Origin: a virus
Taxonomy: Duplodnaviria; Heunggongvirae; Uroviricota; Caudoviricetes
Strand: one strand, 5' to 3'
IMG/VR virus record: IMGVR_UViG_2529292882_000016
DNA length: 45,980 bases
Under the pieces are notes generated by a model. The model made no database searches. It worked only from the letters and a program-made list of their open reading frames with translations, and was not told the DNA's origin. Positions 1,061 through 42,545 of the stretch are shown piece by piece (position 1 is the first letter of the stretch; each line of letters begins with the position of its first letter). Made by a program: the position numbers and the translations under genes.

Positions 1061-1161
1061 CTTTTGATAGGACTGCAACCGGACGGCGACAATAAAAACA
1101 GCCACTTACGGACACTGACCAGACAGTGAGCGGACTTAAAAAAGACAAAAATATACACGCA

Positions 1162-1177
1162 AAATGCACGTGCATTT
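1162..1177. repeat. 16-bp perfect palindrome AAATGCACGTGCATTT near the left prophage end
   Basis: Seen directly; half-site AAAATGCAC also occurs near the right end (41002..41010). Function not established. Confidence 0.6.
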
Positions 1178-1183
1178 CAAAAA

Positions 1184-26257: not shown

Positions 26258-27349
26258 ATGAAGAAAATCGAAAAACTGTTCACTGAAGTAATACGGAAGT
26301 TGCGCCATAAGAAATTTATGCGCTCGATAGCTAGTAAAAGAAGCACAACAGAAAGAAAACTAAAACGTAATGGAAGTTTAAAAAAAATCTCTCCAGAAAA
26401 AATACTTGCTCCAACCATACTTGATATTTACAAGGCGGAATATCATGAGAATGTGGTTAATTTTATAGAAAAAATAGAAAACAAAGCAAAAACAGGAAAT
26501 AAAAAGATATATATATGCTTCAGAAATACAATTCACATATCGGCTGCTGCTGGCTTATTTCTTCTTGCAAAACTAGAGACATTAAAAAGCAATCATAAGG
26601 GCTTAAAATATATCGTAGCCAAACCTCCAATTAAAACTTCATCAAAAGGAGAGCAGCACGTTGTTGATTCTGTTTTGAACAGAATCGGTATCTATGCAGC
26701 ATTAGGTGTTAAATCAAGAGAAATGAGAGAAACTCCGTCTGTAAAATGTTGGGAGGTAATTCGTGGCGAACTCGTAGATTCGGAAATTGCGGGGAACTTA
26801 TTAGAAACAATCACAGAAAGAATGGGTACCGATTATACAGATTTATATCGCCCCTTGATAGAAGCCATGTCTAATTCAGTAGAGCATGCATATCGAGACG
26901 ATTTATATGACTCAAATAAAAATAATAATAAAAATAAATGGTGGTGCTTTGCTGCAATTATGAACAACAAGTTAATATTACTAATTTGTGACCTCGGTGT
27001 CGGTATACCTAAAACGTTAAAACTCACTCAAGGTGAAAAGGTTCTTGCAAAACTAACCGAGTTCCTTGGTAAGCCATTAGTCCTTGATTCAGAACATATA
27101 AAAGCCTCATTGCAAGTTAAACGAACCCGAACAAAGCTTGGATACAGAGGGAAAGGAGGAACTGATTTACAATCTATCATAGAAAACTTTGAAAATGCAC
27201 AATTACGGATTATATCCAACAAAGGAAATTACAGATATACTCATCGTAAGAAAGCAAGACCAGAGTTAATGTGGGATGCCAAACATTCCATCAACGGTAC
27301 TATAGTTGAATGGAGCGTACCGCTACCAAATGAAGGAGACCCCCAATGA
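26258..27349 (+). CDS. GHKL-superfamily ATPase/kinase, RsbW/SpoIIAB-like C-terminal domain with ~190-aa N-terminal extension (363 aa from ATG 26258)
   Basis: N-box-like EAMSNSVEHAY, G1 box ICDLGVGIP (DxGxG), G2-like GYRGKGGTDL, with appropriate spacing; AT-rich; stop overlaps next gene's ATG (ATGA). Confidence 0.75.
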   Translation: MKKIEKLFTEVIRKLRHKKFMRSIASKRSTTERKLKRNGSLKKISPEKILAPTILDIYKAEYHENVVNFIEKIENKAKTGNKKIYICFRNTIHISAAAGLFLLAKLETLKSNHKGLKYIVAKPPIKTSSKGEQHVVDSVLNRIGIYAALGVKSREMRETPSVKCWEVIRGELVDSEIAGNLLETITERMGTDYTDLYRPLIEAMSNSVEHAYRDDLYDSNKNNNKNKWWCFAAIMNNKLILLICDLGVGIPKTLKLTQGEKVLAKLTEFLGKPLVLDSEHIKASLQVKRTRTKLGYRGKGGTDLQSIIENFENAQLRIISNKGNYRYTHRKKARPELMWDAKHSINGTIVEWSVPLPNEGDPQ

Positions 27350-39602: not shown

Positions 39603-39812
39603 GTGGGGCTGGATTGCGTACCTATATCAACCTACTGCCGCAACGCAGGAGAAACGGTTGATGCCGTTAACAAACGGATACAAAGAGGAATATGGAAAGA
39701 AGGGGTACATGTATTAAAAGTCGACGGAGTTAAAGAACGTTGGGTCGACTTAATGGAGATTACAAAATGGGCAAGAAAGAACAAGGATCACTATCTCTCC
39801 CTAGAGGAGTAA
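39603..39812 (+). CDS. xis: Excisionase-like protein (69 aa; GTG start assumed)
   Basis: Small basic protein immediately upstream of and overlapping int, as in lambda xis-int; winged-helix-like composition. Confidence 0.5.
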   Translation: MGLDCVPISTYCRNAGETVDAVNKRIQRGIWKEGVHVLKVDGVKERWVDLMEITKWARKNKDHYLSLEE

Positions 39813-40939
39813 CTATTCGCCAGCATAAAACTGGTAGCACTCTGGTTATCACTTTTACATATAAAGGGGTTCTGTGTCGGGAGCCCCTCTCCAGAATGGA
39901 AGTAAACGCGCGCGGTGTGAAGTACGCTGAGCGTCTGCTGGGAGAAATAAAAAATCAGATTATCGATGGTACCTTCGAATATGCAAAATACTTCCCCAAC
40001 TCCCAAAAGCTGGAGTTGTTCGGGGGAGTGAAAAAAAACAAAAATATAAAATCTTACCTGGATGAATACCTGATTATCTGCCAGAACCGTAACCTGTCAC
40101 CATCGACAATTAGAGGTTATGAAAAATGCCTGTCGGCGCTGTCAGCATTGCATAAATTTCATGTATCAGAACTGACACCTGCAGTACTAAAAAACTGGAT
40201 CGCCAGCAGAAAAACAAAACTGAAAACTATCCGCAATAATCTTTCATTCTTGCGCAGCGCCATAGATGAAGCGGTGACCGATGGTTTGTTAACAATAAAT
40301 CCTGTCACGCTAGTCAGCGCCAGCCGGTATCACGTATTGGACAACACACCAGGCAGTGATGATTACGAGGTCGATCCTTTTACACCAGCGGAGACGGCAG
40401 CAATCTATGACGCCTGTCATTACCCGGAATGGCGAAATCTGTTTCGCTTTGCCTTTAATACAGGACTGCGCAGCTCAGAATTGTGCGCGTTGCGCTGGAC
40501 GGATATAGACTTTATCGGCAACACCGCGCATGTTCAGACTGCAAGCGTAGTCGGGGTAATCAAAAGCACCAAAACAAAAGCCGGCACCCGCAAAGTGCAA
40601 CTGAACAGCGAAGCGCTGGCGGCTCTTCAGGCACAAAAGCCCTACACGGCGCTAAAGAGCGACTTCATATTCAGCGATCCGAAAACTCGCGCTCCTTGGG
40701 CAAACGCAGATGCGATCCGAAAAAAAGCCTGGGTACCAACCCTTAAAAAAGCTGGTGTACGCTATCGCAATCCGTACCAGACACGCCACACGTTCGCCAC
40801 TCGGCACATTAGCCAGGGCGTTAACCTGTTCTGGCTTGCTGGTCAGATGGGGCATAAAGGACCGGAAATGCTGTTCAGACATTACGGCTCTTACCTTGCA
40901 GAATACGATGGAAAAACGGCGATTTCTGCAACCCCGTAA
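39767..40939 (+). CDS. int: Tyrosine integrase, lambda Int-like (390 aa from ATG 39767)
   Basis: C-terminal catalytic region with RHTFATRHISQG...RHYGSYL (R/H/R/Y-type motifs); transcribed toward the att repeat at 41072. Confidence 0.85.
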   Translation: MGKKEQGSLSLPRGVTIRQHKTGSTLVITFTYKGVLCREPLSRMEVNARGVKYAERLLGEIKNQIIDGTFEYAKYFPNSQKLELFGGVKKNKNIKSYLDEYLIICQNRNLSPSTIRGYEKCLSALSALHKFHVSELTPAVLKNWIASRKTKLKTIRNNLSFLRSAIDEAVTDGLLTINPVTLVSASRYHVLDNTPGSDDYEVDPFTPAETAAIYDACHYPEWRNLFRFAFNTGLRSSELCALRWTDIDFIGNTAHVQTASVVGVIKSTKTKAGTRKVQLNSEALAALQAQKPYTALKSDFIFSDPKTRAPWANADAIRKKAWVPTLKKAGVRYRNPYQTRHTFATRHISQGVNLFWLAGQMGHKGPEMLFRHYGSYLAEYDGKTAISATP

Positions 40940-41071
40940 CGGCAAAATATTTCAAAATGTTGTACAGAATCAGGACGTTACCGGGACAACAATATGTACG
41001 TAAAATGCACATAATTCATTGTTTGAAAAAATAAATCGTTCATATTCAATAAATTGGATTAATCACGATCA

Positions 41072-41098
41072 CGGGTTCAACTCCCGCCAGCTCCACCA
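41072..41098. repeat. Second copy of the 27-bp att direct repeat (displaced ssrA 3' end)
   Basis: Identical to 1034..1060; the downstream flank (AAATTCTCCATCGGTGATTACC...) carries a terminator hairpin and is then followed by a P4-type integrase, as at the chromosomal ssrA locus. Confidence 0.85.
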
Positions 41099-41178: not shown

Positions 41179-41303
41179 TGCCCTCAATTTGTCCCGCGAA
41201 GTCCGAAGAAAACTAATTAAATCCGATCCTTTTAGGCACCTTGTTAGGCACCTCATAAAGCTTTATTGTTTTTTGAGGTGCCTAAAACTATGGAAACCCG
41301 GCA

Positions 41304-42545
41304 ATGGCAAGACAAACCAAACCTCTATCCGTTAAAGAAATAGAATCAGCCAAACCCAAGGAGGCGGACTACGTTCTCTATGATGGCGATGGCCTTGAGC
41401 TACTCATTAAATCCAGCGGGAGTAAAATCTGGCAGTTTCGCTACATTCGCCCTGTCACCAAGAAACGAGCAAAGAAGAGCATAGGCTCCTACCCGTCAGT
41501 TACCCTTGCCGATGCCAGAAACTACCGTGCAGAGTCCCGCTCACTACTGGCTAAACAGATCGATCCGCAGGAACATCAGCAAGAACAATTGCGCAGTTCG
41601 CTGGAAGCCAAAACCAACACTTTCCAACTCGTAGCTGAACGTTGGTGGAATGTGAAGAAAGCCAGTGTGACAGAGGACTATGCGGAAGATATCTGGCGCT
41701 CTCTTGAAAGAGACGTCTTTCCTGCGATTGGCGACGTTAGCGTTACAGATATTAAAGCTCATACACTGGTTCAGGCCGTACAACCGGTTCAGGCCAGAGG
41801 AGCACTGGAAACTGTTCGTCGCCTGTGCCAACGTATTAATGAGGTCATGATCTATGCCCAGAACACAGGGCTGATTGATGCTGTTCCCAGCGTTAATATC
41901 GGTAAAGCCTTCGAGAAGCCTCAGAAAAAGAACATGCCCAGCATTCGACCGGATCAGCTACCTCAGTTAATGCAGACGATGCGAACAGCCAGCATTAGCC
42001 TTTCCACACGCTGCCTGTTCATGTGGCAACTTCTTACTATTACCCGCCCTGCCGAAGCGGCTGAAGCTCTCTGGGAAGAGGTAGACATAGAAGCGCGAGA
42101 GTGGAAGATTCCTGCAGCACGCATGAAAATGAACCGCGACCATACTGTTCCATTGTCAGATGAAGCAATTGCGATACTAGAGATGATGAAGCCGTTAAGT
42201 GGAAATCGAGAATTTATCTTTCCCAGCCGCATCAAGCCAAACCAGCCGATGAACAGTCAGACCGTAAACGCATCGCTAAAACGCGCAGGTTTTGGTGGGG
42301 TGCTCGTTTCACACGGCCTGCGATCTATCGCCAGTACAGCCCTTAATGAGCAGGGATTTCCACCTGATGTTATTGAGGCTGCACTTGCTCATGTGGATAA
42401 GAATGAGGTTCGTCGTGCGTATAACCGTAGTGATTATCTTGAGCAGCGACGGCCTATGATGCAGTGGTGGGCTGATTTTGTGATGGCTGCAGATCACGGT
42501 AGTATGATTGAAGGAGGGATAAAGGCAATGCGGTTAGTTGGATGA
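41304..42545 (+). CDS. intA: P4-type tyrosine integrase, CP4-57 IntA-like (413 aa)
   Basis: N-terminus MARQTKPLSVKEIESAKPKEADYVLYDGDGLELLIKSSGSKIWQFRY and C-terminus ...HVDKNEVRRAYNRSDYLEQRRPMMQWWADF typical of P4-family integrases; about 200 bp after the ssrA 3' end. Confidence 0.85.
   Translation: MARQTKPLSVKEIESAKPKEADYVLYDGDGLELLIKSSGSKIWQFRYIRPVTKKRAKKSIGSYPSVTLADARNYRAESRSLLAKQIDPQEHQQEQLRSSLEAKTNTFQLVAERWWNVKKASVTEDYAEDIWRSLERDVFPAIGDVSVTDIKAHTLVQAVQPVQARGALETVRRLCQRINEVMIYAQNTGLIDAVPSVNIGKAFEKPQKKNMPSIRPDQLPQLMQTMRTASISLSTRCLFMWQLLTITRPAEAAEALWEEVDIEAREWKIPAARMKMNRDHTVPLSDEAIAILEMMKPLSGNREFIFPSRIKPNQPMNSQTVNASLKRAGFGGVLVSHGLRSIASTALNEQGFPPDVIEAALAHVDKNEVRRAYNRSDYLEQRRPMMQWWADFVMAADHGSMIEGGIKAMRLVG

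Follow-up and report, generated by a model that had tools for sequence, protein, structure and literature searches.

The question raised by this locus is which protein reads the short repeated sequences that lie in both arms of the attachment site of an ssrA-integrated prophage, and what the unit that is read actually is. The window analysed here is a stretch of 45,980 bp which starts with smpB-ssrA and contains a prophage of ~40 kb inserted in the 3′ end of the tmRNA gene ssrA (698-1060, + strand; identified by ARAGORN, with the tag ANDENYALAA). The element is bracketed by the direct repeat D3, an identical 26-bp core GGGTTCAACTCCCGCCAGCTCCACCA on the + strand at attL (1035-1060) and at attR (41073-41098); the core target is the ssrA T-arm, and the 3′ end of the gene is rebuilt by the core that the phage brings. 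The left end of the prophage is adjoined by − strand tail-fibre genes, while the right end carries xis and then the overlapping int. From the core repeats and the position of int, the attP of the free phage is therefore derived as 40940-41098 joined to 1061-~1215, and this junction, running from the P arm through the core into the P′ arm, is found uninterrupted in phage LMessi and in the IMG/VR contigs L030 and L034. The int-attR stretch was matched in 828 of the 5,426 complete E. coli genomes.

The int gene (39767-40939, + strand) encodes a heterobivalent tyrosine integrase of 390 aa which carries a separate N-terminal arm-binding domain (PF12167, Arm-DNA-bind_2) and a catalytic domain (PF00589, E = 1.9e-19) with PDB sequence matches to the Int proteins 6en0 and 1z1g. 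PF12167 was found in all 28 fragment homologues having any Pfam match, and because PF12167 is combined with PF00589 the protein is assigned, among the arm-binding tyrosine recombinases, to the IntBPP-1 subgroup (PMC8138268). In the ORF listing int begins at TTG 39740; ATG 39767 was preferred because the annotated proteins of relatives begin with MGKKE or MGTKE, and the overlap with xis is therefore 46 bp. The xis gene itself (39603-39812, + strand), which overlaps the int start, encodes an excisionase of 69 aa belonging to PHROG 2917 (E = 1.5e-40) with no Pfam match. In an AF2 model (pLDDT 79) the Int N-terminal domain consists of three strands and one helix, with β2 at residues 23-32 and β3 at residues 35-41; a single-sequence AF2 model of residues 1-110 was unusable (pLDDT 47.6). 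The profile of the N-terminal domain gave nothing meaningful against PDB sequences, and no solved arm-domain structure was found by sequence search.

In the original prediction two 13-mers near the prophage ends were proposed as arm-type sites of a lambda-like integrase. Both are present exactly as described, ACGCAAAATGCAC at 1157-1169 and ACGTAAAATGCAC at 40998-41010, the left one 97 bp past the left core repeat (about 100 bp had been given) and the right one 63 bp before the right core repeat (about 60 bp) and 59 bp past the int stop codon, and AAATGCACGTGCATTT at 1162-1177 is indeed an exact 16-bp palindrome. Across all 45,980 bp of the window the degenerate 13-mer ACGYAAAATGCAC is matched at these two places only, each time on the + strand, and it is matched in none of 100 dinucleotide-preserving shuffles. 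The 9-mer AAAATGCAC was counted three times in the window versus 0.74 expected, its third copy being placed at 27192, away from the arms; this lone copy, isolated within an ORF and with no tandem partner, was rejected. The hexamer ATGCAC was counted 21 times in the window over both strands, three of these occurrences being in the arms, which span 273 bp (Poisson P = 3e-4). A search for the 13-mer with two mismatches, which found 4 matches in the window versus 3.06 expected, was uninformative. The expectation that the motif would be enriched only near the att sites was thus borne out by the 13-mer count, by the count of ATGCAC in the arms and by the weight matrix described below.

The similarity of the arms extends beyond the 13-mer. 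The 19-mer ATATRYACGYAAAATGCAC matches at both 1151-1169 and 40992-41010, and the best ungapped 30-mer between the arms is identical in 23 of 30 positions (from 40983 and from 1142), a value reached by none of 300 shuffles. The true unit is a putative 11-bp site with the consensus AWATGCACGTR and an 8-bp core AAATGCAC, which is arranged as one tandem pair per arm in the same orientation, and the 13-mer combines the 3′ end of unit 1 with the 8-bp core of unit 2. On the P arm the pair includes P1 ATATGTACGTA (40992-41002, + strand), which is degenerate and was placed by alignment with ATATGCACGTA of relatives, and P2 AAATGCACATA (41003-41013, + strand). On the P′ arm P′1 ATATACACGCA (1151-1161, + strand), also degenerate and aligning with ATATGCACGTG of relatives, is followed by P′2 AAATGCACGTG (1162-1172, + strand), the left half of the palindrome, and by the inverted P′3 with the same sequence AAATGCACGTG (1167-1177, − strand). 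The palindrome at 1162-1177 is, in terms of these predicted units, P′2 together with the overlapping inverted P′3. The P-arm pair is located ~60-80 bp and the P′-arm pair ~90-110 bp from the core, and the sites repeated on both arms are unlike the core in sequence.

For comparison, relatives were designated as T (the window's clade, with ATGCAC), G (GGAGCC-type) and T* (Serratia, Providencia and Proteus, which keep ATGCAC with an Int ~70% identical). Unit 1 is degenerate in both arms across the window's clade, most relatives having ATATGCACGT(A/G), and P′2 is kept in 28 distinct T-type P′ arms with one A-to-G variant. When ~92,000 positions of the window were scored with a weight matrix built solely from relatives outside the window's own clade, five of the six best were 1151, 1162, 1167 (−), 40992 and 41003, with P′2 and P′3 as joint-best matches and P′1, P2 and P1 at ranks 4, 5 and 6, respectively. 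Among 62 distinct T-type P arms the column conservation was 0.98 in the units (40992-41010), 0.975 in the core and 0.70 in the 32 bp directly 3′ of the units. PurR, CRP and IHF operators were also compared by eye with the TGCAC units; the reading as operators of host factors was dropped because the motif switches between phage lineages in the same hosts.

The same arrangement was looked for in a survey of int relatives from genome contigs, taken as one genome per species down to ~25% identity, in which the 300 bp that follow int were analysed in 45 species-level Int relatives with 28-89% identity for a 9-mer recurring at ≥8/9. Such a repeat was found at offset 11 in 22 of the 45 relatives and at offset 12 in 11 of the 45, while each remaining offset was represented by 0-3 relatives and the control region within int gave 0 at offset 11. 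The repeated motif is lineage-specific (ATGCAC, GGAGCC/GGATAC, TGGGCCGG, ATACACGA, TTTAGCCCT and others): ATGCAC is found in the window clade, Serratia and Proteus, GTGCAC in Providencia, AAARGnnCCGY in LLS, Enterobacter, Kosakonia, Klebsiella, Photorhabdus, Yersinia and Tolumonas, AAATGGGCCGG in Luteibacter, AAAATACACGA in Neisseria, TTTAGCCCT in Janthinobacterium and TGTCGAA in Deferribacter. Wherever both arms were seen they share the lineage-specific units, as in LLS/L208 (AAAGGAGCCGT-AAAGGATCCGC in P and AAAGGATACGC-AAAGGAGCCGC in P′), in Tolumonas (GGATCCGT-TTTGAGCCG in both arms) and in Photorhabdus, and the paired architecture recurs with unrelated motifs across proteobacterial classes.

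Several arrangements around these loci were observed in addition. In some relatives, L132 (phage LLS; 1652-2467), L141, L142, L145 and L157, the gap between int and the core exceeds 1 kb or holds an extra ORF, and in phage LLS the P-arm units (GGGTACGTGAAAGATAC) are placed inside the 3′ end of this extra ORF. Other elements standing in tandem at ssrA upstream of G-type P′ arms (IMG/VR L199, L207, L215 and L235) have their own core-adjacent tandem pairs, for example ATGGCGGCAnnnTTGGCGGCAG, so that ssrA-targeting elements commonly have paired repeats in the P arm. Phage Ayreon (L133) was considered as a test case in which a G-type P′ arm is combined with a different integrase, and it was uninformative, the stretch being a remnant: at 2500-2610 a G-type P′ arm remnant without the ssrA core is located beside an unrelated P4-type integrase in whose surroundings TGTACA repeats abound, and this looks like a scar of module exchange. 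In the window a second island with a P4-type integrase follows rightward beyond attR; its integrase gene (41304-42545) carries Arm-DNA-bind_3, and upstream of it the repeat region 41232-41285 includes two direct copies of TTAGGCACC at 41232 and 41244, 12 bp apart, and an inverted GGTGCCTAA at 41277-41285. Repeats of TAGGCCCA occupy the same place upstream of the P4-type integrase gene in relatives, and those of the window are probably the neighbouring island's own arm or autoregulatory sites.

Apart from the units, both arms contain a second, phased repeat, RGAC. On the P′ arm (1070-1146, + strand) it starts at 1070, 1081, 1110, 1121, 1132 and 1143, that is, with spacings of 11, 29, 11, 11 and 11, six copies on the + strand versus 0.45 expected (P = 8e-6) and 0 on the − strand; on the P arm (40962-40987, + strand) a degenerate GTAC at 40962 is followed by GGAC at 40973 and 40984 with the 11-bp spacing, and the conservation of this block is 0.91 in the 62 distinct P arms. 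T-type and G-type relatives alike retain the RGAC array, whereas the units differ, and the arrays, candidate sites of the recombination directionality factor (RDF), are likely to be Xis filament sites. The candidate IHF site ATTCAATAAATTG (41044-41056, + strand), read from the sequence, has one mismatch to the consensus WATCAANNNNTTR and is part of a TTCAAnnnnTTR block with conservation of 0.83, which is placed between two variable stretches, 17-29 bp from the core. The P′ arm also contains an inverted repeat CACTG-ACCAGA-CAGTG (1113-1128), which in several relatives is CTCTG-ACCAGA-CAGAG, with both sides changed, and which is broken in others.

At its outer end the P′ arm is closed by a strong bidirectional intrinsic terminator found by the scan at 1181-1212 on both strands, with −20.2 kcal/mol on the + strand and −27.6 kcal/mol on the − strand (z = −3.2 and −5.9, respectively). 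A hairpin and T-run are present at this position in all relatives, with different stem sequences. On the − strand the terminator ends the tail operon; in the lysogen it comes first among the terminators past ssrA and is the one for the ssrA precursor, and in the free phage it is located downstream of int and attP, as lambda tI/sib. The head-to-head arrangement of P′2 and P′3 just before it is found in the G-type family too (GGAGCCG/CGGCTCC, 66 distinct P′ arms), where symmetric double variants of the palindrome GGAGCCGCGGCTCC (IMG/VR L195-L313, e.g., L211, L222, L253 and L272) were observed, namely GGAGTCGCGACTCC in 11 loci and AGAGCCGCAGCTCT in 1, together with one-sided changes; these symmetric variants hint at selection on symmetry itself. 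Most T-type arms have AAATGCACGTGCACTT with one mismatched pair, and the palindrome is perfect via different changes in the window (GCATTT) and in L121 (AAGTGCAC).

According to these data the units are probably Int arm-type binding sites, and the original prediction is supported in this respect by the enrichment in the att arms, by conservation at the level of the core and by the family-wide 11-bp pairs, while the 13-mer itself is not the binding unit. The evidence favours Int over Xis as the binder through covariation, which is statistically modest. In Int residues 1-95 the T* proteins are 65.5% identical to T and 58.7% to G, while for the core-binding domain the values are 67.8% and 68.4%, for the catalytic domain 74.7% and 77.8%, and for Xis 71.1% and 68.1%, so that a clear grouping of T* with T is seen in Int 1-95 only, the 3-point gap of Xis not being counted as sorting by motif. 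Ten Int columns split T and T* from G perfectly, six of them in residues 1-95 (Fisher P = 0.017 versus the rest of Int): S/L10K, V27N, L36K/R, K/Q/R43N and positions 80 and 83. Residues 27 and 36 fall in the predicted β2 and β3 of the AF2 model, and residues 10, 27, 36 and 43 are candidate determinants of arm-site specificity. Compared directly, the Int N-terminal domain and Xis have 6/95 and 1/61 discriminating columns, a difference which is not significant (P = 0.16), and the contrast of ATGCAC with GGAGCC represents roughly one evolutionary switch. The degenerate state of unit 1 on either arm of the window likewise counts against the reading as Int sites.

The opposite assignment, with the tandem TGCAC pairs as Xis sites and the phased RGAC motifs as the true Int arm-type sites, is unlikely but is the main rival reading. 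RDFs are known to use head-to-tail repeats one helical turn apart (PMC7498355), the tripartite RDF site of Gifsy-1 being a parallel (PMC2603039), and a Xis-like ORF is located beside int in every relative checked, so that no Xis-free relative was available as a natural control among the distant relatives examined. The P-arm pair is also core-proximal to the RGAC array and adjoins the IHF-like block, like lambda X1-X2 (PMC4880445); in lambda the place between H2 and P2 is taken by the Xis sites, and it is they, not the Int site P2, that adjoin H2 on the core-proximal side (PMC4880445), therefore by position alone the pair could be Xis sites. The 11-bp head-to-tail spacing does not discriminate, because adjacent Int arm sites share such spacing. 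However, Xis shows essentially no variation in its predicted helix and wing from the ATGCAC to the GGAGCC family, with one weak discriminating column, and Xis identity is not sorted by motif type. Pairs on both arms together with an inverted copy are not what a head-to-tail filament would use, the low-information, multi-copy RGAC array suits the behaviour of an RDF better, and Deferribacter L189, the only one of the relatives checked with a different, MerR-like excisionase ORF, nevertheless keeps an 11-bp pair. Xis as the binder retains its limited weight because of the non-significant column comparison, the nearly single switch, the tandem repeats of RDFs and the lambda site order.

Two further explanations concern the P′ cluster and the arms as a whole. 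It is improbable that the P′ cluster was selected mainly as a nucleic-acid hairpin, that is, a second − strand terminator or insulator, and not as a protein site, although a − strand hairpin at 1175-1153 followed by ATTTTTGTCT scores terminator-like in the scan immediately after the main − strand terminator, most T-type relatives are able to form TGCACGTG-CATTT-CACGTGCA followed by TATTTTTG, and the G-type double variants as well as the two differently reached perfect T-type palindromes point in the same direction. Against it, the 16-bp palindrome alone folds weakly (−4.5 kcal/mol, z = −0.75; 47 of 200 shuffles as good or better), double-sided events number one or two versus about five one-sided, the P-arm pair cannot form a comparable hairpin, and the family-wide 11-bp pairs after int are left unexplained. 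A hairpin role is moreover compatible with the reading as Int arm sites and not exclusive of it: a dual-purpose cluster, in which the head-to-head P′2/P′3 with P′1 would also serve as a second − strand terminator or insulator hairpin, is a doubtful but conceivable variant. If base pairing and protein binding were both under selection, this would account for the way in which the palindrome co-varies symmetrically in two motif families unrelated to each other, and such a cluster, if true, would protect either attP (in the free phage) or ssrA (in the lysogen) against late transcription. That the arms are alike by chance, or merely through common ancestry and without function, might be suggested by two A+T-rich non-coding arms with only two or three exact copies in the window, but is scarcely credible and was rejected, since zero shuffles reach the observed matches, the units are conserved like the core while their flanks drift, and the architecture is repeated with unrelated motifs in different proteobacterial classes.

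With the units taken as Int arm-type sites, Int would bind them by its N-terminal domain of three strands and one helix (residues ~12-67) and the core in the ssrA T-arm by its C-terminal domains, and would in this way link arm to core like the lambda intasome, while Xis on the phased RGAC arrays and IHF on the TTCAAnnnnTTR block would supply the bends. Both the identity of the binder and the arm-core bridging are what we infer from these comparisons.

Judged by sequence, attP and Int resemble a lambda-type heterobivalent system: the catalytic domain, the separate arm-binding domain, the repeated arm sites unlike the core, and their conservation and covariation with Int were all found, together with candidate accessory sites for IHF and Xis. 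Like lambda attP with its P1, P2 and P′1-P′3 sites, it combines a heterobivalent tyrosine integrase and an adjacent xis with ~10-bp sites on both arms that are unrelated to the core and separated from their neighbours by about one helical turn, with a candidate IHF site between arm sites and core, and with a terminator past the P′ arm in the tI/sib position. Unlike lambda, the arm domain belongs to the PF12167 family (IntBPP-1 subgroup), the motif is AAATGCAC and integration is targeted to the ssrA T-arm; P and P′ have an identical pair in direct orientation, to which P′ adds an inverted, overlapping third unit; an isolated distal P1-like site was not found in attP; and on the P arm the pair is nearer to the core than the putative Xis array, the reverse of the order P2-X1-X2. 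With the integrases of BPP-1, the Stx2a phage and Gifsy-2, members of the IntBPP-1 subgroup, Int shares the DUF3596/PF12167 arm domain with three strands and one helix predicted, and the three-stranded-sheet DNA-binding domains of Tn916 Int and of the AP2 type are among the closest known systems. The direct repeats 10-11 bp apart in attP also resemble the filament sites of RDFs (Xis/Cox/Apl), such as lambda X1-X1.5-X2, the Gifsy-1 tripartite site and the five Apl repeats of 186; however, there are two direct units per arm and one inverted, on both arms, the motif is of high information and changes without a matching change of Xis, and the neighbouring RGAC array is more RDF-like.

Smyshlyaev et al. 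2021 classified the IntBPP-1 proteins and termed them putative integrases (PMC8138268). In the full-text literature no published arm sites were found for IntBPP-1/PF12167 integrases, for ssrA-integrating phages or for CP-1639, only the family classification (PMC8138268), and the sites are elements of an ordinary kind which have apparently not been described before for the PF12167 integrase family. The known mechanism of lambda-type recombination is unchanged by the finding of these arm sites. What it offers is a sequence map of attP for widespread ssrA-integrating enterobacterial prophages and, for PF12167 integrases, the rule of an 11-bp tandem pair directly downstream of int, which could help to delimit prophage ends.
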